Below the pieces are notes generated by a model. That model worked only from the letters and a program-made list of their open reading frames with translations. It was not told where the DNA came from and ran no database searches. Position numbers and translations under genes: made by a program. Positions 3,541 to 63,039 of a DNA stretch of 64,000 bases are shown one piece after another. This stretch comes from a virus (Duplodnaviria > Caudoviricetes): the IMG/VR virus record IMGVR_UViG_3300028601_000023, positions 77,175 to 141,174 of that record; one strand, written 5' to 3'. Within the stretch, counting starts at the first letter, position 1; each line of letters starts with the position of its first letter.

Positions 3541-3555
3541 AATAAATAAAAGTTG

Positions 3556-3621
3556 TTGACATCTAGACTCCGAATGGTTATTCTAATCTTAATTGAACGG
3601 AAACATATAACCATTCGGAGT
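3556..3621 (+). promoter_or_regulatory. sigma70-type early promoter with anti-SD inverted repeat
   Basis: TTGACA 3556-3561, 17 bp, TATTCT 3579-3584; ACTCCGAATGGTTA (3567-3580) is the reverse complement of TAACCATTCGGAGT (3608-3621, RBS). Confidence 0.85.
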
Positions 3622-3625
3622 TATC

Positions 3626-3886
3626 ATGCTTTACCACCCCACTTACACTGCCGCAATTTCTACTGCTCTTGATTCCGCTGAAGAACTCGGTTATTCCTAT
3701 GATGAAAATGAATACTTTGATACAATAGCAATCGGAACATCTCGTCCAAAAGTTGGCGAGACTTCGAGATTCTCCCTTAGACTTCGTCACAATAGCATGA
3801 AAGCCACTGATGCTGATGTATATATTCATGTACAGGTTTATGGAATGGAATCTGGAATGTACGAACTTAACTTTTATATTCTGTAA
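3626..3886 (+). CDS. hypothetical early protein
   Basis: GGAG SD, directly behind an early promoter. Confidence 0.75.
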   Translation: MLYHPTYTAAISTALDSAEELGYSYDENEYFDTIAIGTSRPKVGETSRFSLRLRHNSMKATDADVYIHVQVYGMESGMYELNFYIL

Positions 3887-3894
3887 AACAATTA

Positions 3895-3923
3895 TTGACA
3901 TTCTATAAGCTATTAGTTATTCT
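3895..3923 (+). promoter_or_regulatory. sigma70-type early promoter
   Basis: TTGACA-N17-TATTCT followed by the shared AAACTCAATTGAAC leader. Confidence 0.85.
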
Positions 3924-3959
3924 AAACTCAATTGAACAACAAATCCCTGGAGGATTAAG

Positions 3960-6034: not shown

Positions 6035-6303
6035 AAACATTTAGCGAATATTTGAATGAGTCTATTGATTATACAAAGAAAAAACATCCAGATGGCGGAG
6101 AGCTCGCAATTCTCATAAATCCTTTGAAAAATGATGGCGAAGATGGAAAGTATACAGTAGTGCTTCGTCCGAATAGAAAAAAAGGATCAATAAAAACTCG
6201 AAAATCTATAAACATACAATCTTTTAATAATCTTCATGATGCTGAAAAGGCAAAAAAAGAATATGCTATAAAATTTGGTTATGGTATAGTAGGATCGAAA
6301 TAA
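6031..6303 (+). CDS. putative internal head protein
   Basis: N-terminus MKTFSEYLNES; basic. Confidence 0.7.
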   Translation: MKTFSEYLNESIDYTKKKHPDGGELAILINPLKNDGEDGKYTVVLRPNRKKGSIKTRKSINIQSFNNLHDAEKAKKEYAIKFGYGIVGSK

Positions 6304-6825
6304 ATGATCAATTATTCACTCTTTGTAGAACTCTGTGATCTAGTAGAAAAGTATAAAGACCGTTATGAGGAATCTAAACGGTCTCATATTGAAAAGGTCA
6401 TAACAAACGGAAAGAAACTGTTCTATTCTGGAATGTTTCCGACACTACCAGATCTGTTTTTGTCTGAACTAGAATCTCATGACAATACAAAGTTCTACTC
6501 TGATGAATATTTTGGAGCAGTCCTTCGGCACGCTGTTAATTTCTGTGGTGCTAAATATCCCTCTAAAGATATAGAAGACTTTGCTAATAGTTCAATTGAT
6601 ACCCATAAGAAATTGAATTCTCATCATCCAGAGAGCTTTCTAAACCCAAATGATATGACTCTAATGCATCTTGCTTTAATGATATCTGACTGGGAAGCTG
6701 TTGCGTCAGAGGAAAAGAATTCTACTAGAGAATGGTGGAACAAGGTCAAGGGCAACTATAACTTTGATGATGAACATGTATATATGATTGAACGACTGAT
6801 TTGGTTTTTTGAGAACTATTCATGA
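6304..6825 (+). CDS. HD-like phosphohydrolase (DUF5662-like)
   Basis: H...HDNTKF...H..LNSHHPE...MISDWEA pattern. Confidence 0.6.
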   Translation: MINYSLFVELCDLVEKYKDRYEESKRSHIEKVITNGKKLFYSGMFPTLPDLFLSELESHDNTKFYSDEYFGAVLRHAVNFCGAKYPSKDIEDFANSSIDTHKKLNSHHPESFLNPNDMTLMHLALMISDWEAVASEEKNSTREWWNKVKGNYNFDDEHVYMIERLIWFFENYS

Positions 6826-7244
6826 TAACCTTTACTACCTTTCTAAATGAGTCTGTTCTAAAAGTAAAGAACAAGTCTCTATCAGTTGTCTCTGCTGACA
6901 GGAACAAACTTGTCAGCATCAATATTAAAAAATTTGATGAAGCTTTCAAGAAGTCTAATATGTATATCGGTCCTGGTGGATCTGGATCTATTCATGGTAG
7001 ATATAAACGGTTTGGAATATTTGTCTTTGGTGGAGTAGAAGATATTGGAGGAGGGATCAAGATTCCCTCCAAAGGTGTTGATTCAATTGAAGCTCCACAG
7101 GTTTCAGTCAATGACATCGGAGAGATCAGCTTTACCAATGGCCGGCATAGATATGCATGGCTTCGAGACAACAAAGCTGATAAGATTTTTGTTTCAATGG
7201 ATCCGACATCGATCAAGAACGCCAAGGACTTTGGATACATTTAA
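6822..7244 (+). CDS. ParB/Srx-like domain protein with capsid-targeting-like N-terminus
   Basis: MITFTTFLNES leader; ISFTNGRHRYAWL resembles the ParB-N (D/N)GxHR motif. Confidence 0.55.
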   Translation: MITFTTFLNESVLKVKNKSLSVVSADRNKLVSINIKKFDEAFKKSNMYIGPGGSGSIHGRYKRFGIFVFGGVEDIGGGIKIPSKGVDSIEAPQVSVNDIGEISFTNGRHRYAWLRDNKADKIFVSMDPTSIKNAKDFGYI

Positions 7245-7282
7245 AGACTTTCAAGCGCCGCAACGAAACAGTCAATAATATC

Positions 7283-7304
7283 GGGACCTTACGGTCCCTT
7301 TTTT
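7283..7304 (+). terminator. intrinsic terminator
   Basis: GGGACC-TTAC-GGTCCC followed by T6. Confidence 0.85.
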
Positions 7305-7315
7305 AATTTTCTGCT

Positions 7316-7830
7316 AATTTTGTTGGTAAATATACAGCAATTTTCGTCAATTTCGGGAATAGTCAATTAATTCAACAGGTTAGATGAAATATAGACACAC
7401 TCTAAGTGGTTGATTTAATTCAACAAAAAAAGATACCGTTATTTTCCACAACATTTTTCGTAAATCACAAAAGTGAACCGTTTAAAGTAGACAGCTGAAG
7501 GTTTTCTATATGTATTTCGCTGAATATTCTACTAGAGAAGAGCGAAGCTAAATCTTTCCACTGAGGGAACCGAAGTGGATGTCCGCAAGGACAAAACTCT
7601 GATGAGATTTTATTAGATCACCGGAGTGAATACTTAAAGTAGACAGCTGAAAGTATTTTTAGACTAAAACTTTAGAGTCTCTAAGGTGGGCGGTAAAAAG
7701 TATATCTAAATCGTTCTATGAAATTCTATTTCAATTAATGATCAACCAATTTCTTCTATTGCCTCTAATTGTTCCCTAGCGGGAAATGGCCTCGGTTCCC
7801 TTCGGCCAAAGTTTTAATGGTTTCTATAAA
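7316..7830. repeat. non-coding hairpin element, copy A (candidate replication origin or structured RNA)
   Basis: 7316-7463 matches 44097-44244 (143/148) and 7540-7680 matches 44320-44460 (140/141); ORF-free; multiple hairpins. Confidence 0.9.
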
Positions 7831-7997
7831 TATTTCTATGGAAACCTTCTATCAAATTTTCAACTAAGTTTCTATTAATTTTTATTCATTATTTCTATGT
7901 TATATCCATGTTTTATAGCTCCAAACTATATTTGCTTGTGACTAAGTATTCAAGATTATTGAAAATGATGAATTCGGCAACAATTTCAGCTATTCTA

Positions 7998-8026
7998 TTG
8001 ACAACTGAAGAATTTTGGAGTATATT
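7998..8026 (+). promoter_or_regulatory. sigma70-type promoter
   Basis: TTGACA-N17-TATATT upstream of nrdG. Confidence 0.8.
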
Positions 8027-23172: not shown

Positions 23173-23643
23173 ATGCGAATTTTTGGAAACATCATCTGGC
23201 ATCTGTTTTGTTTTGGGTGGCTGACATCTTTGATTTCTGTTCTATTTGGCGCTCTATTTTCTATTACTGGATTTCTAACACCGATTGGACTAGGATTGAT
23301 TCAGTACGCAAAATTTACTCTAGCTCCTTTTAGTTATTCTATGATCTCAAAGAAAGAACTTCGTCCAGTAACTCATCAGACTGGAATTCTATGGAAGTTG
23401 CTATCAGTTATTGGATTTATTTTCTATGCTCCGTTTGGAATTGCTTTGGTGATTCTAGGAGTCTTTCAAGCAATCGTATTGATTTGTACTATTATTGGAA
23501 TTCCTATGGCTATTCCATATATCAAGAGTCTCGGTACTCTATTCAATCCGATCGGAAAGGTTTGTGTTCCAAGAGTTGTCGCGACTGCGGTTAAAGCTCG
23601 GAACGATGCAATGGTAGTAGAAAAATATATTGGTAATGTGTAA
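23173..23643 (+). CDS. yccF: YccF-domain inner membrane protein
   Basis: MRIFGNIIW..FGW, PIGLGL, TIIGIPMA, FNPIGK. Confidence 0.85.
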   Translation: MRIFGNIIWHLFCFGWLTSLISVLFGALFSITGFLTPIGLGLIQYAKFTLAPFSYSMISKKELRPVTHQTGILWKLLSVIGFIFYAPFGIALVILGVFQAIVLICTIIGIPMAIPYIKSLGTLFNPIGKVCVPRVVATAVKARNDAMVVEKYIGNV

Positions 23644-23651
23644 AATACTTG

Positions 23652-23716
23652 TTGACAGTACTCCTTGGTTGAGTTATTCTAAACTCAATTGAACGGAACA
23701 ACAAAAACCAAGGAGT
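23652..23716 (+). promoter_or_regulatory. early promoter with anti-SD inverted repeat
   Basis: TTGACA-N17-TATTCT; ACTCCTTGGTT (23660-23670) is complementary to AACCAAGGAGT (23706-23716). Confidence 0.85.
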
Positions 23717-23988: not shown

Positions 23989-24067
23989 CTCCCTCTCGCC
24001 TAACTTGGTTATGGCTCTCGGTTTGGAGCCGAGTATAATGCTTGTTCGAATCAAGCGGGGGAGACCA
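23989..24067 (+). tRNA. tRNA-Pro(UGG)
   Basis: CTCCCTC/GGGGGAG acceptor, CTCGG-TTTGGAG-CCGAG, GTTCGAATC, CCA. Confidence 0.9.
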
Positions 24068-24070
24068 TAT

Positions 24071-24142
24071 TCCGAAATAGCTCAATGGCAGAGCACGTGC
24101 CTGTTAAGCACAAGGTTTCTGGTTCGAGTCCAGATTTCGGAG
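24071..24142 (+). tRNA. tRNA-Asn(GUU)
   Basis: TCCGAAA/TTTCGGA acceptor, loop CTGTTAA, GGTTCGAGTCC; CCA not encoded. Confidence 0.9.
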
Positions 24143-24147
24143 CACAC

Positions 24148-24225
24148 GTCCTCGTAGTCCAACTGGTAGGAGACAAGAGATTCAAGATCTCTACAGTGTC
24201 TGTTCGAATCAGACCGGGGATACCA
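24148..24225 (+). tRNA. tRNA-Leu(CAA), short variable loop
   Basis: AGAGA-TTCAAGA-TCTCT, GTTCGAATC, ACCA. Confidence 0.85.
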
Positions 24226-24236
24226 GTAAAAATTAT

Positions 24237-24311
24237 GCCGGTATAGTTCAGTGGTAGAACGCTTGTTTTGTAATCAAGATGTCGGGAGTTCAAATCTCTC
24301 TATCGGCTCCA
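24237..24311 (+). tRNA. tRNA-Thr(UGU)
   Basis: GCCGGTA/TATCGGC acceptor, loop TTTGTAA, TCCA. Confidence 0.9.
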
Positions 24312-24320
24312 ATAAATTTC

Positions 24321-24398
24321 GGCCCTTTATCCCAACTGGTAGAGGAAGCTGCTTTAGAAGCAGTAAATGTCTCAGTTCGAATCTGAGAGGGGCTACCA
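24321..24398 (+). tRNA. tRNA-Leu(UAG), short variable loop
   Basis: GCTGC-TTTAGAA-GCAGT, GTTCGAATC, ACCA. Confidence 0.85.
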
Positions 24399-24402
24399 TT
24401 TC

Positions 24403-24478
24403 GTGTCTGAACCCAAATAGCGAGGGCACTGGCTGTGACCCAGTTGGCTAGTGGGAGCGTTACCCACCGGACACTCCA
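24403..24478 (+). tRNA. tRNA-His(GUG), atypical
   Basis: GTGTCTG/CGGACAC acceptor, ACTGG-CTGTGAC-CCAGT, T-loop AGCGTTA, TCCA. Confidence 0.75.
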
Positions 24479-24479
24479 A

Positions 24480-24592
24480 ATTTTGACCACTCTTAGCAGA
24501 GGAGCGTAGATACGGCGGATTGTCTTGCGGCACTTATCGATTACGTCACATCATCCAAGAGTAAGCAGACATGAGGGATGATTGGTCAAAAT
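24480..24592 (+). ncRNA. putative structured small RNA
   Basis: 10-bp closing stem ATTTTGACCA/TGGTCAAAAT enclosing three hairpins; GC-richer than its surroundings; within the tRNA cluster. Confidence 0.5.
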
Positions 24593-24597
24593 ATCTA

Positions 24598-24626
24598 TTG
24601 ACATTTTATCTTAACTTAGATATTCT
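24598..24626 (+). promoter_or_regulatory. early promoter
   Basis: TTGACA-N17-TATTCT upstream of tRNA(CAU). Confidence 0.8.
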
Positions 24627-24646
24627 ATTCTCATCTGAAACAATAT

Positions 24647-24722
24647 TGCCGTATAGTTCAATTGGTAGAATCCCCGGCTCATAACCGGACAGTTACATGT
24701 TCAAGTCATGTTGCGGCAACCA
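24647..24722 (+). tRNA. tRNA-Met or Ile2 (CAU)
   Basis: TGCCGTA/TGCGGCA acceptor, loop CTCATAA, GTTCAAGTC, ACCA. Confidence 0.88.
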
Positions 24723-27975: not shown

Positions 27976-28599
27976 ATGAGTTATTCTATCATTGATTTAA
28001 GGTACAATTCTATAACTGAAATCTTCAGCTATGACAGACTATTGCTTTGGATCAATGATAGTTGTTGTCATTGGCAGACTTGGAGAGGAGACAGAAAACA
28101 ACTTCTCAAATATACAATTGCTAATAATCCAAACGAATTCAGCTGGACCTATGAACGTCAAGTCAGACAGTATTTGATTCTTGATGAATATGACAGAATT
28201 ATATCTCGTGAGATTTTGACTGATGAAATTCTTTCCAAGACTAAAGAATGGTTTGGTACTATTAGAAAAGAACGAAATCGGGAACAGCTTGCAGCCTGGA
28301 AAGCAAAAAGAGAAATCATAGACGAACAATGGGAATTCTGGTCTTCTAGAAGAGATCGTTACAAATATTATGATTATCATCGTCATCCTCGGACTACACA
28401 AGAAAGATCTTTTGCTGTAGACGTGGATCACAAACCATATGTTAGAGGCAAAAGATCTCTTCCAAATCTCCCAGACTGGTATCAAGATATTCCGATTTAT
28501 ATTCACAGAAAGAAATCGTGGAAAGCACTGACAAAAAGAAAAAGACAGTGGAATCCTATTGACAAATCTATAGAATCAGAATATTCTAAACTCAATTGA
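27976..28599 (+). CDS. conserved hypothetical basic protein
   Basis: PRTTQERS..RGKRS..LPDWYQD..KSWK..KRKRQW. Confidence 0.7.
   Translation: MSYSIIDLRYNSITEIFSYDRLLLWINDSCCHWQTWRGDRKQLLKYTIANNPNEFSWTYERQVRQYLILDEYDRIISREILTDEILSKTKEWFGTIRKERNREQLAAWKAKREIIDEQWEFWSSRRDRYKYYDYHRHPRTTQERSFAVDVDHKPYVRGKRSLPNLPDWYQDIPIYIHRKKSWKALTKRKRQWNPIDKSIESEYSKLN
28559..28587 (+). promoter_or_regulatory. early promoter
   Basis: TTGACA-N17-TATTCT plus AAACTCAATTGAACGGAACAA leader. Confidence 0.85.
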
Positions 28600-28626
28600 A
28601 CGGAACAATAAACCAAGGAGTTTCAA

Positions 28627-28953
28627 ATGGGAAAGTATGATCATCAGGGTTCGTTTACATTTTGGGGAAATCGTATCTATCCTTTACCAGATGGTCTCGG
28701 AATCAACGTCAATTACAGCATGTACAGCTCAAGCATAGACGATATTTCTATTGATGAACTTGGAATCGTGTTTGATAATCTTTCTGAAGTAGATGCAAAA
28801 GATTTTTCCGATGTAGATTCTGTTATCAAGGCTAAAGATAATCCGCCCCATAAAGATGAAAGCCATATTATGATCAAATTGTTTTCATTGATCTCTGAAC
28901 TTCAGATCGAAGCATGGGAAGATTTTCAATCAAAAGGAAGGTTATCTAAATGA
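28627..28953 (+). CDS. hypothetical early protein
   Basis: AAGGAG SD. Confidence 0.7.
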   Translation: MGKYDHQGSFTFWGNRIYPLPDGLGINVNYSMYSSSIDDISIDELGIVFDNLSEVDAKDFSDVDSVIKAKDNPPHKDESHIMIKLFSLISELQIEAWEDFQSKGRLSK

Positions 28954-29222
28954 CTACTTTTACTTATGCAGATATGGTCAATACTGCTACAATGTTGGAA
29001 CTCTTTACTTTGTTAGAAGCTGATCCAAATGTTTCTAGTAGAATTGATGATTTTTTCTTTATCTATATCGATGGGCATTATGATATTGCTCCGATGCACT
29101 ATCCTATGCAATCTCTTTGCAAGTTTCTTGAAAATCCCGGCACCGTTGACGAAATTGTCGAGTTGTATGGATTAGAAATGATTGATCTTATTCGGTTCAT
29201 GTGTGGAGATTGTCTATTTTGA
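28950..29222 (+). CDS. hypothetical protein
   Basis: ATGA overlap with the upstream gene. Confidence 0.65.
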   Translation: MTTFTYADMVNTATMLELFTLLEADPNVSSRIDDFFFIYIDGHYDIAPMHYPMQSLCKFLENPGTVDEIVELYGLEMIDLIRFMCGDCLF

Positions 29223-30969: not shown

Positions 30970-30981
30970 TAAAAGAATTAG

Positions 30982-31049
30982 TTGACAGAACTCCTTGGTT
31001 CAGTTATTCTAAACTCAATTGAACGGAACAACAACAAAACCAAGGAGTT
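30982..31049 (+). promoter_or_regulatory. early promoter with anti-SD inverted repeat
   Basis: TTGACA-N17-TATTCT; AACTCCTTGGTT (30989-31000) is complementary to AACCAAGGAGTT (31038-31049). Confidence 0.85.
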
Positions 31050-36321: not shown

Positions 36322-37058
36322 ACTCCATCATTAATATAAGCAATTGTGAGATCTCGAACGATTCCTGATCTCACAATATCATCAACATCGAATTCCGTAA
36401 TACCAATGTTATCAATTTCATAACGGTCAACAATGTCAATGAATTGCTCTAAACCGGATACTTTAATGTCTCTTTGTTTTAGATCTCCACAAAAGATCAT
36501 TTTTGTATTTTTTCCGATACGAGTAGACAAACATTTGATTTCAGAAAACTCTAATTGCTGTGCCTCATCAACAATGACAATGGTATTTTCAAAGTTTCTG
36601 CCACGCATTGTTTCCATAGGTTCTAGAATGATTTTGGGATGTTCTCCGTGCATCCATGTATTGACAACGTTAGATCCGGCGAATTGTTTAGCGTATGTTA
36701 GCATCTGTTGAATCCACGGAAGCATTTTTTCATATATGTCTCCAGGGAAGAAGCCCATTGTTTTACCAGTTGGAACAGCAGCACGACAGAGGACGAGACG
36801 TTCATAATTACCTAGCGCAAGTTGTTGAATTGCATAGCCAATGGCAAGAAAAGTTTTACCAGTGCCCGGGCACCCATGACCGACAATAATAGTATCTTTA
36901 CGTAATGATTTTAGAAATAGGATTTGATTTTCAGTCTGTGGAGCAATAGATATTTGAAAGCGAGGTTCTGATGATAGAAATTTTTCATGAGATTTGCGTT
37001 TCTTTGATTTGTCGGATTCACGCACACATTCTAGAGATTCAGCCTTTTTTCTACCCAT
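36318..37058 (-). CDS. phoH: PhoH-family ATPase
   Basis: GCPGTGKT, GFFPGD, MRGRNF, VDEAQ, TRIG, GDLKQRD, DIVRS. Confidence 0.95.
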   Translation of the reverse strand: MGRKKAESLECVRESDKSKKRKSHEKFLSSEPRFQISIAPQTENQILFLKSLRKDTIIVGHGCPGTGKTFLAIGYAIQQLALGNYERLVLCRAAVPTGKTMGFFPGDIYEKMLPWIQQMLTYAKQFAGSNVVNTWMHGEHPKIILEPMETMRGRNFENTIVIVDEAQQLEFSEIKCLSTRIGKNTKMIFCGDLKQRDIKVSGLEQFIDIVDRYEIDNIGITEFDVDDIVRSGIVRDLTIAYINDGV

Positions 37059-37070
37059 TTGATTTCCTTA

Positions 37071-37111
37071 ATGATATTTTAGTTGACATTGTATGTCAAC
37101 TTGATTATATT
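37071..37111. promoter_or_regulatory. overlapping divergent sigma70 promoters
   Basis: Palindrome AGTTGACA-TTGTA-TGTCAACT; plus strand TTGACA-N17-TATATT, minus strand TTGACA-N17-TATCAT. Confidence 0.6.
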
Positions 37112-37141
37112 TATTAATCATCAAAACAAAAGGAGCCTTTA

Positions 37142-37462
37142 ATGAATCAAGTAGTATTAATGAAAATGACCAATGGTGAAGAAGTTCTTGCAACTGTTGT
37201 AGCTGCTAATGACGATACCGTAACTGTGACTCATCCAATGTGTATCATGCCGAATCCTGATCAGCCTGGTGCTCTGATGATCTTTCCTTGGTCCGTTGTA
37301 ACTGTTGATCGGAACAAAACTATTGAAGTTGTAGTGAATCGGACAGCAATGGTTTTTATTGTTGACGAAATTCCATCCAACATTGAAAAGTTCTACCGTG
37401 AACAGACATCTGGAATTATTGTGGATTCCAGCTCTATGAATAACACCAAACTAATTCTCTAG
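37142..37462 (+). CDS. conserved T4-like Sm-fold hypothetical protein
   Basis: KMTNGEEVLA...PW...Y.EQTSGII pattern. Confidence 0.7.
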   Translation: MNQVVLMKMTNGEEVLATVVAANDDTVTVTHPMCIMPNPDQPGALMIFPWSVVTVDRNKTIEVVVNRTAMVFIVDEIPSNIEKFYREQTSGIIVDSSSMNNTKLIL

Positions 37463-37472
37463 GAGTATATCA

Positions 37473-37766
37473 ATGGCAAAGCAGAAAAAAGTTAAAGTAG
37501 AATGGGGTGGAATGCCTACTTCTGATGGTGATCTGAAGGTCATCAAGGCATCTATCGATGGTACCTTTGATATTGTAAAAGATATTGAGAATGCAAAGGA
37601 TGATTTGACCGACTATTTCAAAGAACTACATGAAAAGTTTGGTATGCCTCGTCGTGTATTCAACTTTCTTGTGCGGACCAATTACAAGGGCAATGCTTCT
37701 GAAGTAATTGACAAGAACTCTGAACTTGAAGAAGCATATGATGCACTTCAGAAGGTAGTTCTTTAA
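37473..37766 (+). CDS. dsbA: dsDNA-binding protein DsbA-like
   Basis: Size, helical pattern (EKFGMPRRVFN..V..NYK) and T4 synteny dsbA-33-59-32. Confidence 0.65.
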   Translation: MAKQKKVKVEWGGMPTSDGDLKVIKASIDGTFDIVKDIENAKDDLTDYFKELHEKFGMPRRVFNFLVRTNYKGNASEVIDKNSELEEAYDALQKVVL

Positions 37767-38722: not shown

Positions 38723-39625
38723 ATGTCATTTGCAGCGTTTAAAAAGAAAAGAAATGCGACCGAGATCCTTGAGAAGATGCAGAAGCCAGTTAAATCTTAT
38801 GAGAAATCTGAGTTTTACTATCCTGTCATCGACAAAGAAAAGGGTACTGCCTCCGCTGTTATTCGTTTCCTTCCTGGAAAGAATACTGACCTTCCCTATG
38901 TAACAGTTTATTCTCATCGTTTTAAGGGTGATGACGGGCGATGGATGTTCGTTGATCTTTGTGGTACTACTATCGGTAAAGAATGCGGCGTTTGTGGCGC
39001 TAACAAGATTCTATGGGAATCTGAACAGGAAGCAAAGCGCAAGATTGCTTCTGCGCGGAAACGTGATCGTAAGTATATCTTCAACGTTTTGATTGTACAG
39101 GATTCTATGCAGCCTGAGCTTGAAGGCACCGTTCAACCATATGCCTGTGGTCAGACAATCTTTGATCTGATTACTTCTGCTATGAAACCCGAGTTCGAAG
39201 GCGAAGAACTGAAGGATCCTTTTGATATTGATGAAGGAAACAACTTCATGCTTCGTATTCGTCGTGATCCTGCTAAGAACAACCAGGTAACATACGACAA
39301 GTCTAAGTTCGACGATACCAAAACTGCTATCTGTGACGGTAACGAAACAAAACAGAAGGCGGTCTATGAAGCAATGATCGATCTGAATAAGTATATTGAT
39401 CCTTCTCGTTTGATGGATGATAAAATGATGCAGGATAAAGTAGCTGCAGCTTATGCCACTTGTATTGGTGGAAGAGTTGTTGCTCCGGCTGCAAGTATTC
39501 CTACTCCGGAGCCCCGTGCATCTAAGGCTGCAGAAATGGATTCTCCACCTTGGGGTGATGATGAAGAAGGAACTGGATCAGAAGATGAAGATTTGGATTT
39601 CTTTCGAAAGCTTGCTAACGAATAG
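38723..39625 (+). CDS. 32: single-stranded DNA-binding protein gp32
   Basis: AVIRFLP, H.F..GRW..C.TTIG..C.VC, DPFD..EGNNF, YDKSKF, acidic tail DLDFFRKLA. Confidence 0.95.
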   Translation: MSFAAFKKKRNATEILEKMQKPVKSYEKSEFYYPVIDKEKGTASAVIRFLPGKNTDLPYVTVYSHRFKGDDGRWMFVDLCGTTIGKECGVCGANKILWESEQEAKRKIASARKRDRKYIFNVLIVQDSMQPELEGTVQPYACGQTIFDLITSAMKPEFEGEELKDPFDIDEGNNFMLRIRRDPAKNNQVTYDKSKFDDTKTAICDGNETKQKAVYEAMIDLNKYIDPSRLMDDKMMQDKVAAAYATCIGGRVVAPAASIPTPEPRASKAAEMDSPPWGDDEEGTGSEDEDLDFFRKLANE

Positions 39626-39644
39626 ATCTATATAGAATCAAATG

Positions 39645-39668
39645 AAAAGGGAGCGAGGCTCCCTTTTT
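39645..39668. terminator. bidirectional intrinsic terminator
   Basis: AAAAGGGAGC-GAG-GCTCCCTTTTT between convergent genes. Confidence 0.88.
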
Positions 39669-41456
39669 CTATCTCAAAGCGCCAGCAGCAAGTCCACCGA
39701 AAGGATCTGTCATATTGATAACTCTGTTCTGGTGGGTAGTTGAATTCACCGTGTTATTTACTATTGGTTGAACGTTAACATTATTCACATTTGTTTTAGA
39801 CAATTTTGTTTCATTTGCTTGTTGCGTTTTCAATCCAGCAACCATGTCTTTGTATGTATACGGCTTCAATGATTCTACAAGTTTCTTTTTACTATCCTGG
39901 TCTAACAATTCAAAAGGTTTTGCTTGAACTTGCGGCGTGGTTCCTGGAATATCAAGTGGATCATAAATAGTCTGTTTCTTTGTTGGTAAAGGCTCTAATT
40001 TAGTTGGATCTTCTTTAGGTGTTATAACCTTCTTTACCCAATCTGGAAGAATATCATACAGTTTATCAAATACCTTCTTAAACAAATCGGTCACAGGCTT
40101 GATAAAGAATTCTTGTATAGTATCTGTGATAGTTGTAAACGCATTCTTGAATGGTGAAATAATATTATCAAATGTTAGATTTGAAAGAGATTCAAATCCT
40201 GAACGAATTGGAGCAATTACAGATTCATTAAAAAGATCTTTCAAAAATGTATATGCTTCAACAGCAGGGTCTGATACATATTGCTTGAATAATCCTTGAA
40301 GATACGAATATCCTTCTATTACTGGATTCACAATATACTTCATAGCCAAACCGGATACATATTCATATCCTTCTTGGGTTTTCGTAATAAACCATTCATA
40401 CCCGTCAGATATCTTCTGAATAGAATATTCATATCCATCAGCCATCATCATCTTAAACCCTTCATATCCTTCAACGGCCCAGTCCTTCATAGAATTCCAA
40501 GCTTCTGCTGTTTTCTCGGTTAGATAATTGAATCCTTCTACTGCTTTTAGTTTTATGTTGTCAAAAGCTTCAAAAACAAAATCCTTTACTGCAATAATCT
40601 GGTCTTCGAATTTCTTATAGACATAACTAAGACCAGATAAAATAAGCATTCCTAGAGGAACAAGAAGCATTCCTTTCAAGAGCATTAGAACACCCTTGGA
40701 GAACACACCCATAAATCCCTTGGTGAATTTCCCGAAGAAGCTTGTAGAACCAGCTAAACCTGCTGCAGCATCAGCGCCTGCACGAACACGTTCTATTCTG
40801 TTTCCAGTAGTTGTGATATCACCGTCTCGAACAATTGGAGATTCTCTTTCTTCTATTTGAGATTGTCCTTCTTCTTGAGCGTCTCGAATAGCAGAGAAAA
40901 CTGATTCAGCAACTTCTGTCTGTAACTTCTCAGCTCTTTCCTTTTTAGTCTTTCGATTATCCATAAAGTTAGAAGCAAAGTCTCCGATACGAGTTGACAA
41001 ATAACTGAAGATCGGCGGCATGTCTGTAAATATAGTAGATAATACACCAGTCACATCACCAATCCTTTTAACAAACTGATTACCCATCCGATCAAAAATA
41101 GACGTAGCAGATTTCATTGAATCTATAGCAGAGTTGTATGCAGCAAGAGCAACTTCTTTTTCTTTATCTGTTGCAAATACCGAATCTTTAATAGCTGTCT
41201 TAATATACTCAAATGATTTGATCTGATCAGCTCGTTCTGACATAGAACTTCTAGAAGCTTCTTGTAACTGATCAGCAATGTTTGTCATAATAACATTGAA
41301 AGCAGCAGAGTTCCGTTTTAGATCTCCTGCAACTAACTTCTGTGACTCACGAATCCGGAGCTCAACAGACTTCATTGAGTTACCAGCTTTCTCTCGTTCT
41401 ATAGCTTCCTGAATGGTTGTTTCACCATTGTTGTTTTCTGGTCTTGGTAGCGCCAT
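39669..41456 (-). CDS. tape measure / baseplate hub protein (gp29-like)
   Basis: Long helical protein with aromatic periodic repeats (EGYE..) and a hydrophobic segment; follows gp26/51. Confidence 0.7.
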   Translation of the reverse strand: MALPRPENNNGETTIQEAIEREKAGNSMKSVELRIRESQKLVAGDLKRNSAAFNVIMTNIADQLQEASRSSMSERADQIKSFEYIKTAIKDSVFATDKEKEVALAAYNSAIDSMKSATSIFDRMGNQFVKRIGDVTGVLSTIFTDMPPIFSYLSTRIGDFASNFMDNRKTKKERAEKLQTEVAESVFSAIRDAQEEGQSQIEERESPIVRDGDITTTGNRIERVRAGADAAAGLAGSTSFFGKFTKGFMGVFSKGVLMLLKGMLLVPLGMLILSGLSYVYKKFEDQIIAVKDFVFEAFDNIKLKAVEGFNYLTEKTAEAWNSMKDWAVEGYEGFKMMMADGYEYSIQKISDGYEWFITKTQEGYEYVSGLAMKYIVNPVIEGYSYLQGLFKQYVSDPAVEAYTFLKDLFNESVIAPIRSGFESLSNLTFDNIISPFKNAFTTITDTIQEFFIKPVTDLFKKVFDKLYDILPDWVKKVITPKEDPTKLEPLPTKKQTIYDPLDIPGTTPQVQAKPFELLDQDSKKKLVESLKPYTYKDMVAGLKTQQANETKLSKTNVNNVNVQPIVNNTVNSTTHQNRVINMTDPFGGLAAGALR

Positions 41457-42937: not shown

Positions 42938-43489
42938 CTAACCTCTGTTTCTATCTTTCCATACTGAAGTAGCAGTTGCCTTGTGAAAGTGAGCTAATGG
43001 AAGTTCAATTATATTAATCCATTCGTTCATCGGTACTTCAATCAATTTTGTTCTCATATGCGAAAAAAGATATCTTTTAAAGCAGTGCTTCCATCTTGAA
43101 TGAGATAACCCAAGAAGCTTCTTATAAGATATAGTAATATTATTTATACTACGACCGGATACAAGTTTTTGAAAAGGAACTAATTGTTCTAATAGATATT
43201 GACGTTCTTTAATCGGAAGATAGTGAAAGTTCAGACCATAGAATCCTCCGGGAGCAGCATCAACCAAAATGATACATGGGTTAGAATCCCAGTACGGCAA
43301 TTTGTCTTTAGTCTTTGCGTCATAAACCATTAGATACATTCTACCAACTTTTGGTCTAGAGACCTGTTTGACGTTTGGCATTTCATTCTTAATCTTATTG
43401 AATAACCAGTTCATAGATCTACGAGCATTTCTTGATACCGTAGATTTAGTAATCCCACCAAGGACTTCTTTTGCAAATTGATTTATCAT
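42938..43489 (-). CDS. 2: DNA end protector gp2
   Basis: GRMYLMVYDAKTKDKLPYWD..P, YGLNFHYLP, CFKRYL. Confidence 0.92.
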   Translation of the reverse strand: MINQFAKEVLGGITKSTVSRNARRSMNWLFNKIKNEMPNVKQVSRPKVGRMYLMVYDAKTKDKLPYWDSNPCIILVDAAPGGFYGLNFHYLPIKERQYLLEQLVPFQKLVSGRSINNITISYKKLLGLSHSRWKHCFKRYLFSHMRTKLIEVPMNEWINIIELPLAHFHKATATSVWKDRNRG

Positions 43490-44001
43490 TTCTTTTTACC
43501 TTTAGCTTTAAATAAATGTCTTTCAGTAACTACACAGAATTCAAATCCTCTCATCTGACAATACTTTTTGGCTGCTTCCCATTTTGCTTGGTTGACCATG
43601 TAAGTTTTCATCTGTTCTTTGAATTGTGCTTTTGCTTTTTCTGTTAGCAATCGTTTGACGACCGGAGTAATAGTCTGAGCAAACGGTTTGATCTCGACTA
43701 AGAATTTCTTTATAGTTCCATCCTTCTGTCTAACAGCAATAAAGAAGTCGATGAAATACCGATGTTGTTTGTTATCTATAGGAGATATGTACGGAATGAC
43801 AACTTCTTCTGATGCGTATTGAACAATAGCAGGATTCTCATCACACCACTGAATGAATTTTCGCTCCCATGAAGATCTATAGACGATGGATGTAGGATTA
43901 CCCATATATTTAGACGGATTCTTCGGACGATAGTATCCCTGATGATATCGGCTCTTCCGGGATATCGTTGGTTTTTTTGTAGTACTGTTGATATGACTCA
44001 T
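43486..44001 (-). CDS. 4: head completion nuclease gp4
   Basis: YRPKNPSKYMG..IVYRSSWE, SEE..IPY, RYFIDF, VEIKP, NQAKW; ATG at 44001. Confidence 0.92.
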   Translation of the reverse strand: MSHINSTTKKPTISRKSRYHQGYYRPKNPSKYMGNPTSIVYRSSWERKFIQWCDENPAIVQYASEEVVIPYISPIDNKQHRYFIDFFIAVRQKDGTIKKFLVEIKPFAQTITPVVKRLLTEKAKAQFKEQMKTYMVNQAKWEAAKKYCQMRGFEFCVVTERHLFKAKGKKK

Positions 44002-44096
44002 GTATATATTTATTGACGGCAAAAACCGCGGCAAAAGCACCTTTAAAGCAATGACCTATAACCTGCTTATATAATTAATGTTTTTGAATTTTCATC

Positions 44097-44761
44097 AATT
44101 TTGTTGGTAAATATACAGCAATTTTCGTCAATTTCGGGAATAGTCAATTAATTCAACAGGTTAGATGAAATATAGACACACTCTAAGTGGTTGATTTAAT
44201 TCAACATTTGTAGATACCGTTATTTTCCACAACATTTTTCGTAATTGCGGAGCAAATGACTATAAAGTGGCTATAGCTGAAGTTTTATTCTGTAGATTTT
44301 TATGGAAACTAACTGAAAGGAGCGAAGCTAAATCTTTCCACTGAGGGAACCGAAGTGGATGTCCGCAAGGACAAAACTCTGATGAGATTTTATTAGATCA
44401 CCGGAGTGAATACCTAAAGTAGACAGCTGAAAGTATTTTTAGACTAAAACTTTAGAGTCTTCATGGAATGATAGAAATAATTTAAAAGTATATCTATCAG
44501 CTTATAGTTATATTGACGAGCTTCTAATTGATAGATGAATTTCAATATCAACTAATTGATCATTCTCCGGTTCCCTCCGAATGATACCGTCACTAGTTCC
44601 TAGTGACAATGGTTTTAATGGTTCCTTTAAAATTCTATTCTAAATACCTTTATTGTTCGTTATTTCTAGATCCAAAACCAATAGGTTTTTAATCTAAGCA
44701 ATTAAATTTATTCTAATCTCATTCTCCGGTTCCCTCCGAATGACCGTCGCCAGTTCCTGGC
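44097..44761. repeat. non-coding hairpin element, copy B
   Basis: Two blocks nearly identical to copy A, plus a twice-repeated CATTCTCCGGTTCCCTCCGAATG (44561-44583, 44720-44742). Confidence 0.9.
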
Positions 44762-44997
44762 TCCGATATTTTGTTGGTCCTTATTTACTATTCTTGAAGT
44801 TTATAAATATCAATTAACGATTCTTTTAAATTTATTCTATTATTTTATATTATGTCCCTCCAAAACCAATTTAAACTGAATGTAAAGTATTGAAATTGGA
44901 AGGCCAGGCCAAAACTGATTGACAATTGGATGATGGTTGATATATGAATTGTTATTCAGTCTAATGAAACAAATATCAACCTTGGCTGAATTGCCTA

Positions 44998-45054: not shown

Positions 45055-46896
45055 ATGTTTGTTTCCAGAAAACATCTAGCCGAACATTTGTCAGCAATAG
45101 AAGAGAATGAACTTTCAGCCGAAATCTTTATTGCTGATAAAATTCTCAATCATCCTGTTTTTTGTGACATTATCAACCCAGATCACAATTTTTCAACCGA
45201 TACCGTCTTTAATAAAGCCATCTATGATAAACTTGTTGCTGCTGCAACGCTAACAACAATATATCATTATCTTCGTGCGTCTAATATATCAATGTATGAG
45301 CAGTTTGCTGTAACTCCTTATATATTGAGCAAGTTCTATAGATTTGATAGAGATGTATTTCTCGGCTATGGTGCCGGAATTACACGCATGACAAAAGAAG
45401 ATAAGCCGTCATCTTATTTAAGTCCTTTTATAACTCATGTACAGCGCGGATACTATTTCTATAAGAACTGTCCTCAAAATAAGCTTCCAGAATATAGATT
45501 CACACAAGAAGCACTTGATCTATTGTTGACTATTGATTCAGATGATACTAAATATATCAAAATAGATCTTAAAAAGCATTATACTGCAGTTGCTGAATAT
45601 TCTTCAGAAATTTCGCGCCGTGGACAATTTGTAAATAAAGTTGAAGTTCCAGTCTTGGTATATAATGGAAAAGAATATACTAGAGGTAATGTTAGTTCTG
45701 CTATTGCTCATTTCTCCAAACAAAAAGGTCATCCATACGTTATTTGGAATAAAGAATATAAAAATGAAATACTTCCGAAGATGATTGAAGAATTTTATTC
45801 TCTTTATTCGTTTCCGGAAGTAAAAGTTCCGACCTCTCCAACAGCTAAAGAACTATTTGAATCTTCTACTATTAAAGTATATTCATATGACGAGTTCAAA
45901 TCTGAGTTTTATGAGATCGCTTTAGGAACTCCATGGTTGACAAAACAGAAAAATACTGTTTTTGAACATACCGCTCAGCTCGATCTATCAAACATTGAAG
46001 ATTTAATTGCTAACGAATCAAATAACTTACATGTAATCGCAACACTTGAACTAATTAAGTATGAGGCGTTCAAGACTAACAATAATATTAAGCTCGAATA
46101 TCATAGATCTCAGCATGGAAGACTCTACCAATCAGGACCGTCTCTGCAAATGTTACCCAAAGCAATTCGCAAGAAACTGTTGTCCAAATATACTGAAATT
46201 GATATTGCTTCATCAGTCTATTCTATTGTTTATAATTATGCAAAGAACAATAACTACACTGGTTCAATGGACCATATCACCAATTATGTAGATGATCCTC
46301 ATGGATTTCGAAAGAAGCTCCATTCTAATCTATCTGAAATTGATCCAACTGTGACGGAAGATTATGTTAAAACTAATCTGATTGCTGTTGCTTATGGTGC
46401 TAATTATAATGCTAACTATATTGGGTTTGATGCTCGTAAGAAATGTCCTCAGACTATAGCTGTCACGACTTCCGGCTATACTATGACAGATGTCCCAGAA
46501 CGGTTAGCAGACAACAAAGACTTCCAGAATCTCATTGCAGATTTCCGTGGAATTGTCAAATGGTATATAGATAATCATAAAGTAAAGACAGAAACTGGAA
46601 CATATTTTGAGAACGCTCTTGGTGCTAAGATGAAACTTGAACGTGGAACATCCCTTGGCAAGAAATTGGCTCATATGTATCAGGCTCTAGAAGTCATTAT
46701 TCTCGAAAAAATGGCATCAGTCCCAGTACCGAAGTATGGAAATCTATCGCTGAAGAGTACTCGAAACGGTATTGGTCTAATGCTTCATGATGGAATCTAC
46801 GTATTGAAAGAACATTTTGAAGGTATTCCAGATGTTAGTAAGTATTTCAACGAGTTCATCAAGAATGCTTTGGGATATGATCTGAGATTTGATTGA
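45055..46896 (+). CDS. family-A polymerase-like protein (Pol I/T7-RNAP palm, no recognisable exonuclease)
   Basis: HGRLYQSGPSLQMLPK, motif A EIDIASSV, motif B KTNLIAVAYG, HMYQALE, motif C LMLHDGIYV. Confidence 0.75.
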   Translation: MFVSRKHLAEHLSAIEENELSAEIFIADKILNHPVFCDIINPDHNFSTDTVFNKAIYDKLVAAATLTTIYHYLRASNISMYEQFAVTPYILSKFYRFDRDVFLGYGAGITRMTKEDKPSSYLSPFITHVQRGYYFYKNCPQNKLPEYRFTQEALDLLLTIDSDDTKYIKIDLKKHYTAVAEYSSEISRRGQFVNKVEVPVLVYNGKEYTRGNVSSAIAHFSKQKGHPYVIWNKEYKNEILPKMIEEFYSLYSFPEVKVPTSPTAKELFESSTIKVYSYDEFKSEFYEIALGTPWLTKQKNTVFEHTAQLDLSNIEDLIANESNNLHVIATLELIKYEAFKTNNNIKLEYHRSQHGRLYQSGPSLQMLPKAIRKKLLSKYTEIDIASSVYSIVYNYAKNNNYTGSMDHITNYVDDPHGFRKKLHSNLSEIDPTVTEDYVKTNLIAVAYGANYNANYIGFDARKKCPQTIAVTTSGYTMTDVPERLADNKDFQNLIADFRGIVKWYIDNHKVKTETGTYFENALGAKMKLERGTSLGKKLAHMYQALEVIILEKMASVPVPKYGNLSLKSTRNGIGLMLHDGIYVLKEHFEGIPDVSKYFNEFIKNALGYDLRFD

Positions 46897-59414: not shown

Positions 59415-59433
59415 AATTTTAGGAGATAATTAA

Positions 59434-60606
59434 ATGCCTATTGTATTAAATGGTAGTACAGGAATAACTACTGAAGGGATAAATGTAGATACTATAGTAG
59501 ATTCTATTGGTACTGGATCACCTTCTGTTCCTAATGGATTTGAGCAGATGTTTGTTCTACCAGTAGGAACGTTGATGTGGTTTACTGGTAATATTGCTCC
59601 CGCAGGATATCTTGTTGCAGATGGTACATTACATAGTAGAGCCGCTTATCCAGATTTATGGAGTTGGATTGTTACGAGTGGTAATCTTGCAGTAAATGAT
59701 TCTGTATGGGATGAAGGGCAATATAGTCCCGGTGATGGTGCTACTACCTTCCGTGTTCCTAAAGTAGACGATAGGTTCATTCGTGGTAAGTCTGGTACAA
59801 GGGCTGTTGGTTTGGTGGAAGAGGATGCGTTTCAGGGACACGCAATTGGCAATCCAGCTAATGCCACCAAACCCCTAAGACAGCAAATAAATGATTTCTA
59901 CGCGAACCCAACAACAAGCCAACCTAACGCTGCGGCCTTTTTGGGGTCGAGCAACACCGCACTTCCCTTGGCCGTCCCTATCTCTGACGGCATCAACGGC
60001 ACTCCCCGCACAGCCGACGAAACCCGCCCCAAAGCACTCACAATGCTCCCATGTATTAAAGCGTTTGATTCTGTTGTAGAACCATCTGTTTTAAATGCTG
60101 CTGAAATGGTTAGTACTATTAACGGCAAATTAGATAAGGATCAAAATATTGTTTTGGGAACTTCTGTTCCTGCCTCTGGTACTGCTGTGGACTTCGTTGG
60201 GATACCTGAAGGAGTCAAGCGAATTACAGTGATGTTTGATGGGTTTAGTACTAATGGAATTAGCCTCCCACTACTTCGGATTGGTAGTGGGGAAGTAGAC
60301 ACCTCTGGATACGTCAGTAACGCAAACTATTCATCGTTCATTGCCTCCTCAACGGTTGGCTTTTTGTTCATGCAAGGTTGGTCAGCCCCAGTTTCGCTAT
60401 CAGGGGCACTGGTATTAAATTTACTGGAAGGTAATATGTGGCTTTACAATGGACTCACAACAGATATTCCACCGGTTGGAAACCGTGTTGATACTTCATG
60501 CGGGAGAAAGCTCCTTTCAGGCGTAATAGACCGCATCCGCATCACCACAGTAAACGGAACAGACCAATTCGACGCTGGCACAATCAACATTAGTTGGGAA
60601 TTCTAA
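59434..60606 (+). CDS. tail fibre protein with collar domain
   Basis: PVGTLMWF..APAGYLVADG..YPDLW..TFRVP..FIRG; ETRPK; C-terminal SWEF module. Confidence 0.85.
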   Translation: MPIVLNGSTGITTEGINVDTIVDSIGTGSPSVPNGFEQMFVLPVGTLMWFTGNIAPAGYLVADGTLHSRAAYPDLWSWIVTSGNLAVNDSVWDEGQYSPGDGATTFRVPKVDDRFIRGKSGTRAVGLVEEDAFQGHAIGNPANATKPLRQQINDFYANPTTSQPNAAAFLGSSNTALPLAVPISDGINGTPRTADETRPKALTMLPCIKAFDSVVEPSVLNAAEMVSTINGKLDKDQNIVLGTSVPASGTAVDFVGIPEGVKRITVMFDGFSTNGISLPLLRIGSGEVDTSGYVSNANYSSFIASSTVGFLFMQGWSAPVSLSGALVLNLLEGNMWLYNGLTTDIPPVGNRVDTSCGRKLLSGVIDRIRITTVNGTDQFDAGTINISWEF

Positions 60607-60625
60607 TTTCTATAAGGAGAAATAT

Positions 60626-60988
60626 ATGCATATTACACAAGTAGATATCAAAACAGGTAAAGTTATTCAAAGAGAACTTACAGAACAAGAACAAGCAGCT
60701 CTTCCTAAAATTACACAAGAAGATATTGACAAGCAAGCAAGAGAAGCTTTTAAAGCCAATCGTGAGGAAGCAGTAAAAAACATTAAAGTAGAAGTAGATG
60801 GTATGATTTTTGACGGTGATGAAACCTCTCAAACTCGCATGTCGAGAGCCATTCAATTAATGAATGATACAGAAACTACTCTTTGGGTTCTTGCTAATAA
60901 TGAACCAATTCAAGTAACCAAAGCCCAATTATCAGAAGCATTAAGACTTTCTGCTGAAGAGCAAACAAGACTTTGGGATATGGAGTAA
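60626..60988 (+). CDS. tail fibre assembly protein (DUF4376-like)
   Basis: IKVEVDGMIFDGDETSQTRM..WVLANN..QL.EAL. Confidence 0.78.
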   Translation: MHITQVDIKTGKVIQRELTEQEQAALPKITQEDIDKQAREAFKANREEAVKNIKVEVDGMIFDGDETSQTRMSRAIQLMNDTETTLWVLANNEPIQVTKAQLSEALRLSAEEQTRLWDME

Positions 60989-60991
60989 GTA

Positions 60992-62146: not shown

Positions 62147-62198
62147 TTATATGATTACAACTATTGACATAAAGACTCTCGTTAAAGGAGAAATATAA

Positions 62199-62420: not shown

Positions 62421-62452
62421 TGGCTACACAAGTTACACAAGGAGAAATATAA

Positions 62453-63034: not shown

Positions 63035-63039
63035 TTATC

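Follow-up and report, generated by a model that had tools for sequence, protein, structure and literature searches.

The window analysed here is the final 64 kb (64,000 nt) of a 141,174-bp virus contig (36% G+C; IMG/VR record IMGVR_UViG_3300028601_000023) that is about 80% complete according to CheckV. The contig carries the T4-type proteins gp46/47, UvsW, UvsY, gp32, gp59, gp23, sheath, baseplate and NrdDG, and its replication proteins also include a family-B polymerase (36874-37656) and a DnaB-type helicase (contig 43067-43594); the closest named phage is Nitratidesulfovibrio phage SRB7757, with a gp46 identity of just 37%. Our subject is a hairpin-rich non-coding element, here called the cassette, which lies at about 28.5 kb (copy C), 84.7 kb (copy A) and 121.5 kb (copy B) of the contig; these are the sole gaps of at least 250 nt that are free of open reading frames (ORFs). 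The first-pass annotation had described the element as duplicated, and the repetition is real, but the copies number three, the third (copy C) lying outside the window at contig 28127-29181, between gp46 and a peptidase gene. In SRB7757 the space 3′ of gp46 is occupied by a tRNA gene array without a cassette (L053:6150-7540); in the studied phage cassette C fills this space, and six tRNA genes lie elsewhere (window 23989-24722).

Layout of the three cassettes

The sequence AGGGAACCG occurs five times in the window, where 0.11 occurrences are expected and none of 100 shuffles reaches five, and eight times in the whole contig, every time within a single type of hairpin and always in one of the three cassettes. 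What looks like a hairpin loop of 11-13 nt folds further, into tandem G·A/A·G pairs, GG/CC and an apical GAA triloop (GA / GG-GAA-CC / GA). A pattern search for this composite hairpin (stem, GA, GG-GAA-CC, GA) finds exactly eight on the contig. The left arms have three of them, all plus-strand and with the stem TCCACT; the right arms have the other five, all minus-strand and with the stems TGGCC or (AT)CATTC.

From left to right each cassette consists of block 1 (about 150 nt), a module-1 hairpin followed by a 19-nt motif, a gap that varies from 40 to 140 nt, block 2 (about 140 nt) and a right arm of one or two subrepeats, whose hairpins have purine loops on the minus strand; the right arm is the only part that is duplicated, once, in copies B and C. 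The left border is a terminator in copies A and C and a divergent gene start in copy B, and the right end is made up of TTCTAT hexamers, the late promoter box TATAAATA and then an early sigma-70-type promoter of the downstream gene. Copies A and B share two blocks, 7300-7463 with 44081-44244 (93% identical) and 7535-7680 with 44315-44460 (98%). Cassettes are also present at all three orthologous sites in a sister lineage (protein identity about 90-94%), whose metagenomic contigs were reached via protein-cluster look-ups and supply six copies (L023 at site A; L030 and L031 at site C; L047, L048 and L051 at site B); together with the three of the studied genome these make up a nine-copy alignment. 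The features of copies A and B are as follows (window coordinates).

7283-7304, plus strand: intrinsic terminator GGGACC-TTAC-GGTCCC with a T6 run (terminator scan), which ends the upstream operon and forms the left border of copy A
7316-7465, plus strand: block 1 of copy A, conserved in primary sequence, its first 36 nt invariant in the nine copies
7465-7501, plus strand: module 1 of copy A, the hairpin TCAC-AAAA-GTGA (7465-7476) followed by the motif TAAAGTAGACAGCTGAAGG
7540-7680, plus strand: block 2 of copy A, a row of short hairpins P0-P6 (from folding and pair counts)
7541-7549, plus strand: P0, AGC-GAA-GCT
7557-7579, plus strand: P1, TCCACT-GAGGGAACCGA-AGTGGA, with a 6-bp stem, tandem G·A/A·G, GG/CC and an apical GAA
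7580-7593, plus strand: P2, TGTCC-GCAA-GGACA (inner GTCC-GCAA-GGAC at 7581-7592)
7598-7617, plus strand: P3, weakly supported
7618-7629, plus strand: P4, TCAC-CGGA-GTGA
7630-7656, plus strand: P5, whose loop carries the second AAAGTAGACAGCTGA motif
7661-7680, plus strand: P6
7714-7998, plus strand: TTCTAT hexamer array of uniform orientation across the right arm, a candidate iteron or unwinding region
7772-7808, minus strand: right-arm hairpins of copy A, TGGCC-GAAGGGAACCGA-GGCCA (7787-7808) and then TTCCC-GCTA-GGGAA (7772-7785)
7825-7832, plus strand: T4-type late promoter box TATAAATA, directly 3′ of the right-arm hairpins
7998-8026, plus strand: sigma-70-type early promoter of nrdG (TTGACA, 17 nt, TATATT; 11 of 12 positions match), which is the right border of region A
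44097-44460, plus strand: copy B, with block 1 at 44097-44244, module 1 at 44245-44255 (GCGGAGC allele), the variable gap and block 2 at 44320-44460
44337-44359, plus strand: P1 of copy B
44561-44607, minus strand: right-arm subrepeat 1 of copy B, GTCACTAG-GAA-CTAGTGAC (44589-44607) and then CATTC-GGAGGGAACCGGA-GAATG (44561-44583), with a fold z-score of -3.3 to -4.0
44720-44764, minus strand: right-arm subrepeat 2 of copy B, G-GA-GCCAG-GAA-CTGGC-GA-C (44746-44764) and then CATTC-GGAGGGAACCGGA-GAATG (44720-44742)

All the hairpins drawn in the first-pass annotation are present in copies A and B, each in the place where it was drawn; the one at 7787-7808 shows CGGTTCCCT on the plus strand. Block 1, for which folding gave no supported structure, contains the direct repeats TTAATTCAACA (twice) and ACAGCAATTTTCGT with ACAACATTTTTCGT; in copy A it is 99-100% identical to that of copy C, 94% to that of copy B and about 86% to its sister-lineage orthologue. 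The terminator sequence ahead of copy A precedes copy C and the sister-lineage copies as well. In copy B and some relatives module 1 has an alternative allele, TTGC-GGA-GCAA (which contains GCGGAGC) followed by TAAAGTGGCTATAGCTGAAG. The 19-nt motif, TAAAGTAGACAGCTGAARG, is confined to the cassettes and is repeated twice in each, behind the module-1 hairpin and again in the P5 loop; all five contig occurrences of GTAGACAGCTG are likewise cassette-borne and on the plus strand. TTCTAT occurs ten times in region A (12.5 per kb against 1.5 per kb contig-wide, an 8-fold enrichment), eight times in region C (7 per kb, 5-fold) and twice in region B. There is one TATAAATA box in each of regions A and C and two in region B; contig-wide this box is found 21 times on the plus and twice on the minus strand, which fits T4-type late promoters and the prevailing gene orientation.

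Covariation and strand arrangement of the hairpins

Comparison with the sister lineage shows that the stems change by compensating pairs. The P1 stem CCACT/AGTGG becomes CTGCT/AGCAG, with two compensatory pairs, and the sister-lineage hairpin reads TCTGCT-GA-GG-GTCTA-CC-GA-AGCAGA, the apex GTCTA (GUCUA as RNA) replacing GAA; the right-arm stem TGGCC/GGCCA becomes TGACC/GGTCA, which is again compensatory. Within copy B the accessory hairpins of subrepeats 1 and 2 differ by two compensatory pairs, and in subrepeat 2 tandem G·A takes the place of two further pairs when the minus strand is read, where the plus strand would have C·T and T·C. P2 has the alleles GTCC-GCAA-GGAC and GTCCC-GAA-GGGAC, and the module-1 hairpin has the alleles TCAC-N4-GTGA and TTGC-GGA-GCAA. 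Across the nine-copy alignment 89% of cells are paired, against 30-41% in slid controls, with 11 double-change cells and none of 500 shuffles as high, figures that come from only two alleles per hairpin and hence from few independent events. The minimum-free-energy fold includes a long helix, ACUCUG/CGGAGU; it is destroyed in L030 and L047, and a model with two hairpins, P3 and P4, is therefore preferred. A pairing of the terminator with the block-1 A-run (pairs I2 and I12) was also considered and is lost in relatives.

The selection on structure that the first-pass annotation had proposed is supported by these compensatory changes in P1, the right-arm stem and the accessory hairpin. Its further expectation, that relatives would keep the loop, holds for the minus-strand copies and for the GA-GG...CC-GA frame but not for AGGGAACCG on the plus strand: the plus-strand loop of P1 is GAGGGTCTACCGA in every sister-lineage copy, and the exact AGGGAACCG form there is peculiar to the studied genome. 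The conserved part of the motif hairpin is this frame, rather than the nine-base string.

The cassettes are also rich in mini-hairpin motifs of the DNA type, defined here as a G-N(1-2)-A loop closed by two G-C pairs (GCGNAGC, GCGNNAGC and CC..GG variants). The cassettes amount to 2% of the contig and hold 13 of its 58 canonical motifs where 1.17 are expected, an 11-fold excess whose binomial P of 1e-10 is overstated because the three cassettes are non-independent; counted as distinct sites, about 6 per ~1 kb are found against about 0.4 expected, which is still a strong excess. Exact plus-strand motifs in the cassettes are GCGAAGC (three times), CCGAAGG, CCGCAAGG (twice) and GCGGAGC, and exact minus-strand motifs are CCGCTAGG (twice) and CCGAAGG (twice). 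The loops of the whole set, GAA, GGA, GCAA, GCTA and GTAA, are all C-G closed and match the rule for extraordinarily stable DNA mini-hairpins (PMC13037366). GCGNAGC and GCGNNAGC are equally stable as DNA, with a melting temperature of 76.5 °C each (PMC13037366), so that the exchange of GCAA for GAA in P2 should be neutral for DNA. A possible role as single-stranded DNA, suggested in the first-pass annotation, gains support from this enrichment and from the GCAA/GAA exchange.

In the left arm most of these GNA/GNNA mini-hairpins are carried by the plus strand, in the right arm by the minus strand, and a single plus-strand RNA would thus have UUC and UAGC loops and pyrimidine mismatches on the right. 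Other features are strand-specific as well: P3 has a G·T on the plus strand, and the tandem G·A of the second accessory hairpin of copy B is on the minus strand. Together the covariation of the stems, the conservation of the motif and the strict strand layout point to selection on the hairpins themselves.

Within the studied genome the cassettes are 94-100% identical, and orthologous cassettes of the two lineages are 79-93% identical, the four-fold degenerate sites of flanking genes being 68-84% identical; since identity is higher within the genome than between lineages, the cassettes evolve in concert, and the constraint on them is moderate and patchy. The alleles are mosaic across copies and lineages; L051, for example, combines the block 1 of the studied genome with a sister-type P1. 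Short-read assemblies break within the cassettes. On an ENA contig (L029:7101-10492) gp46 is joined to nrdG, genes that are 56 kb apart in the studied genome, through a hybrid cassette that is C-type on the left and A-type on the right; this could be a genuine recombinant or else a chimera produced by assembly across the repeat.

A proposed single-stranded DNA signal and rival explanations

The reading that we favour, at a probability of roughly 0.4, is that each cassette may be a cis-acting element whose working form is single-stranded DNA, with a replication origin or a priming region as the likeliest kind; we infer both the active form, DNA, and the process, initiation of replication. On opening of the duplex the plus strand of the left arm would fold into a row of small hairpins tipped by G-N-A or G-NN-A, and in the right arm like hairpins, including the GA-GG-GAA-CC-GA core, would form on the minus strand. 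As in the model for RSF1010 oriV and G4, the hairpins may resist coating by single-strand-binding protein and mark a start for a polymerase, primase or helicase loader; with the hairpin-bearing strands as templates, synthesis would proceed away from the centre to both left and right, and the TTCTAT array could be an initiator-binding or unwinding region. Frequent homologous recombination among the three copies would keep them near-identical. We also count in favour of a DNA signal that no sigma-70 or TATAAATA promoter was found upstream of block 1 or block 2, and that a strong terminator lies ahead of copies A and C.

Several points weigh against a DNA origin. The characterised origins of T4 use promoter-driven R-loops rather than hairpins, and GNRA-like loops and tandem G·A pairs are typical of RNA too. 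The TTCTAT array is weak in copy B (2 copies), and the upstream terminator has a GTAA loop on the minus strand (CCGTAAGG) in the left arm, an exception to the strand pattern. Nearest-neighbour folding fails to separate the strands (RNA z-scores of -2.6 and -2.1, and DNA energies about equal). No RepB′-type, AEP or DnaG-type primase was detected on the ~80%-complete contig; the Pfam models Prim-Pol, Toprim_2, Toprim_4, DNAG_N and Zn_Ribbon_Prim have no match on it, where the gene may be in the missing part, PF16793 (RepB′) matches neither the contig nor the control genomes, and no primase is seen among the genes near the helicase. GC skew has no origin signature, because it tracks gene orientation; its inflections were set aside as origin marks, since the skew reflects gene orientation only. 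A DnaA box in block 1, TTTTCCACA, was considered and rejected, being altered to TTTTCCTCA in the sister lineage.

A serious rival, which we nevertheless regard as doubtful, is that the cassettes encode structured non-coding RNAs, one transcribed rightward through blocks 1 and 2 and one or more leftward from the right arm, with a shared protein-binding hairpin (tandem G·A and a GNA or GNRA tip). The covarying stems speak for such RNAs, as does the G·U pair of P3, valid on the plus strand only; the GCAA and GTAA loops belong to the GNRA class, and in RNA tandem G·A commonly serves as a protein-binding motif. The plus strand of block 2 folds at -42.6 kcal/mol (z = -2.6 against shuffles), and there is a promoter-like sequence on the minus strand (TTGAAT-17-TATAGT at 7953-7925), which reads TTAAAT-17-TATAGT in copy C and the sister lineage. 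This minus-strand site is, however, lost in the B-type subrepeats; blocks 1 and 2 have no recognisable promoter in front of them and, in copies A and C, a strong terminator, and neither transcript has a clear terminator of its own. The GAA and GGA triloops and the GCTA loop are unusual for RNA and standard in DNA mini-hairpins (PMC13037366). The first-pass annotation had allowed that a known Rfam family might be present; no family matches either window cassette at E up to 10 (best E at least 1.2, scores far below gathering), and a gathering-score search of the whole window passes only tRNAs. It had also raised the possibility of a kissing interaction of the two loops in one RNA; in the form considered here, a single plus-strand RNA spans the cassette, and pairing of P1 with the complementary loop of a terminator-like hairpin farther downstream would control read-through to the downstream genes. 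In the studied genome the two loops are complementary over 10-11 bp (predicted at -18.6 to -20.5 kcal/mol), and in the plus-strand reading a short U tract (GTTTTAATGG) comes after the right-arm hairpins and immediately ahead of the late promoter; the complementarity is automatic, because the same motif lies on opposite strands. All six sister-lineage copies have GUCUA at the apex and keep the downstream loops as they are, so that there is no compensation and the pairing there falls to 3-5 plus 4-5 bp (-10.7 to -14.2 kcal/mol); in addition, this strand would give the right-arm hairpins UUC and UAGC loops and pyrimidine mismatches, and no promoter was found, all of which makes a kissing RNA highly improbable. 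Among smaller RNA or promoter candidates, a hammerhead ribozyme (CUGAUGA in block 2) has no covariance match and its motif is lost in the sister lineage, a likeness to a tRNA fragment or T-arm is not borne out by ARAGORN, which finds only the tRNA cluster at 23989-24722, and for TAGACA in the 19-nt motif, taken as the -35 box of a sigma-70 promoter, the -10 candidates are inconsistent among the copies.

It is unlikely, in our estimate, that the cassettes are homologous linker repeats, mainly substrates of recombination between genome modules or maintained by it, with hairpins that are incidental or promote breaks. Their concerted evolution and mosaic alleles (L051 and L029) and the assembly breaks within them agree with such a role, as does the published analogy of the Campylobacter group II phage repeats (PMC4546147). 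The lineages also differ by an inversion: compared with two sister-lineage contigs that were assembled independently of each other (L012:9690-10001 and L047:5380-6520), a module of about 27 kb next to copy B has the opposite orientation, its span being from contig 122008 (window 44834) to the contig end and from the contig start to 7815, on the assumption that the contig ends are contiguous. The breakpoints, however, lie outside the conserved blocks, and one of them lies at the right end of an IS605 element (tnpA 6225-6653, minus; tnpB 6713-7858, plus); a hairpin-bearing stretch of 61 bp (7816-7876) is found at both inversion junctions in the sister lineage. The cassettes have no arrays of tandem 72-86 bp units like those of the Campylobacter phages, and their compensatory stems, motif conservation and strict strand layout favour selection on the hairpins. 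Derivation of the cassettes from IS200/IS605 as a non-autonomous element (a palindrome-associated or miniature inverted-repeat transposable element, PATE/MITE) was rejected, the two lineages having the cassettes at the same three sites, as was an IS605 origin of the hairpins, since the right-end hairpins of that element (GGAAC-ACGG-GTTCC and others) are unlike those of the cassettes.

A last alternative involves a neighbour of copy B, the gene at window 45055-46896, which encodes a protein of 613 amino acids. The C-terminal half of this protein can confidently be assigned a family-A DNA polymerase-like fold on the basis of its predicted structure: residues 290-613 (the C-terminal 324), modelled with a 29-sequence alignment, reach a predicted local distance difference test score (pLDDT) of 94.6 and match the palm and fingers of the DNA Pol I family with a Foldseek probability of 1.0 and E of about 1e-6, the best matches being Pol I, apicoplast Pol and Pol theta (an alignment-free AlphaFold model of the 613-amino-acid protein, with a pLDDT of 33, is unusable). 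This part has 60 distant metagenome relatives, two distant homologues of the protein being on contigs of 2-3.6 kb with uninformative gene contexts, and the motifs D, K...YG and HDG (in place of HDE) are conserved; no exonuclease domain was detected, and the protein has no match to PDB sequences, Pfam (profile) or PHROG. The hairpins, or the 19-nt motif, might be start sites for this enzyme, like N4 hairpin promoters or a dedicated primase system. The predicted fold and its motifs, the N4 mini-hairpin GCGGAGC in the B allele, the failure to detect a DnaG or AEP primase and the confinement of the 19-nt motif to the cassettes argue for it. Against it, the gene adjoins a cassette only in the studied genome: in the sister lineage copy B remains with the gp4-like gene, apart from the 613-amino-acid gene, which has an element-free upstream region of 310 nt. 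Moreover, the top structural matches are DNA and not RNA polymerases, and on the incomplete contig a primase may lie in the missing part. We therefore consider this use of the cassettes as start sites quite improbable, and it seems just as improbable that the enzyme would read their single-stranded DNA hairpins as a hairpin-directed primase or RNA polymerase.

Relation to known origins and repeats

Mini-hairpins of the kind that is enriched in the cassettes sit in the G4 origin, in RSF1010 ssiA (CCGAAGG) and in the N4 hairpin promoter (GCGGAGC) (PMC13037366). At RSF1010 oriV, binding of an initiator to iterons and opening of the DNA by a helicase are followed by exposure of a pair of similar hairpin signals on complementary strands, from which a dedicated primase then starts leading strands in both directions (PMC8567376). 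The cassettes resemble this arrangement in that all three have similar hairpins (the GA-GG-GAA-CC-GA core) on opposite strands a few hundred bp apart, like ssiA and ssiB; the CCGAAGG mini-hairpin of ssiA (PMC13037366) recurs in the P2 allele of copy C and relatives, and an array of short repeats in one orientation (TTCTAT), which has only 2 copies in B, lies nearby. They differ in belonging to a phage and not a plasmid, in occurring three times per genome with many hairpins per arm, in having repeat units of 6 nt where the iterons have 20 bp, and in having no sequence similarity to ssiA; no RepB′, RepC or RepA homologue was detected in the phage, nor was one matched in the control genomes. Clusters of GCGNAGC/GCGNNAGC-type hairpins in a non-coding region are also found at the complementary-strand origins of G4, St-1 and alpha3, where their presumed roles are to keep off single-strand-binding protein and to serve as recognition sites for primase (PMC13037366). 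Those are single-stranded DNA phages with one such origin on one strand, whereas the cassettes belong to a double-stranded DNA phage and carry hairpins on both strands around a centre.

The Campylobacter group II phages (CP21, CP220 and CPt10) are T4-related and have a few long, similar non-coding repeats between genome modules, with a module inversion next to a repeat and assemblies that break at the repeats (PMC4546147). Their repeats are made of up to 18 tandem units of 72-86 bp in two arms, sometimes enclosing genes, whereas the cassettes are unique blocks with covarying hairpins; no sequence similarity of the cassettes to these repeats was found. The neighbour of copy B at window 43486-44040 (minus strand) matches the T4 head-completion ("head closure") PHROG and a TnsA-like endonuclease N-terminal Pfam family, and head-completion genes likewise lie in or beside the repeat regions of the Campylobacter group II phages.

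The early promoters of N4 are DNA hairpins, with a stem of 5-7 bp and a 3-nt GNA loop, that are read by a single-subunit phage enzyme, the virion RNA polymerase. Likeness to them extends to the exact GCGGAGC, in the B-type module-1 allele only, and to the encoding of an accessory enzyme with a family-A fold. A giant RNA polymerase of the N4 type was not seen, the accessory enzyme is nearest to DNA polymerases, the other cassette hairpins have longer composite tips and there is no evident downstream transcription unit. T4 itself has several dispersed origins, and its origins are linked to recombination; such dispersed multiplicity parallels the three cassettes. At T4 oriF and oriG a middle promoter and an unwinding element allow priming from an R-loop. 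Unlike these, the cassettes have no recognised MotA-type middle promoter, or other promoter, in front, and the T4 origins are not hairpin clusters.

Beyond the sister lineage, searches for the cassettes themselves gave no relatives: a blastn search of a phage collection found no match, pattern scans of IMG/VR (with the P1 sequence, the paired inverted motif and GTGAATACYTAAAGTAG) gave only chance matches in unrelated contexts, a metagenome pattern scan with the start of block 2 found none, and AGGGAACCG is absent from the corresponding loci of distant relatives reached through the peptidase gene (27-37% identity).

Other repeats and genes of the contig may be recorded here. An early-promoter family has five members (window 3546-3611, 3885-3950, 23642-23707, 28549-28614 and 30972-31037), each with TTGACA, 17 nt, TATTCT and then a conserved AAACTCAATTGAACGGAAC, which recalls the promoter/stem-loop cassettes of other T4-type phages. 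At window 59420-63036 a gene segment of about 1.5 kb is present in three diverged tandem copies (repeat families D2, D3, D5, D7 and D8; 70-86% identity), which are probably paralogous tail-fibre or receptor-binding genes. An ORF at contig 39420-40361 (L058:420-1361) is RecA/UvsX-like and has a terminal Hint/intein N-terminal fragment (Pfam RecA, Hom_end_hint and Intein_splicing).

To our knowledge, the replication origins and cis-acting DNA signals of T4-related phages other than T4 are essentially unknown, and GNA-loop DNA mini-hairpins are so far known from single-stranded phages, IncQ plasmids and N4 promoters. Judged by their sequence, the cassettes appear to extend known kinds of element, namely hairpin-marked origins or priming signals and the inter-module repeats of T4-related phages, and they provide a three-copy, sequence-defined candidate, with covarying hairpins and a strict strand layout, that is directly testable. 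They may also explain the broken or hybrid assemblies of this lineage and mark sites at which genome modules are exchanged. If they encode RNA instead, they would represent a new phage RNA family with an unusual hairpin shared by both strands, and if the 613-amino-acid enzyme does read them, a new origin-priming system that merges features of N4 hairpin promoters and IncQ ssi sites would exist in a T4-like phage. If, as we favour, the cassettes act as single-stranded DNA signals, the use of GNA-loop mini-hairpins would extend to large double-stranded DNA phages.

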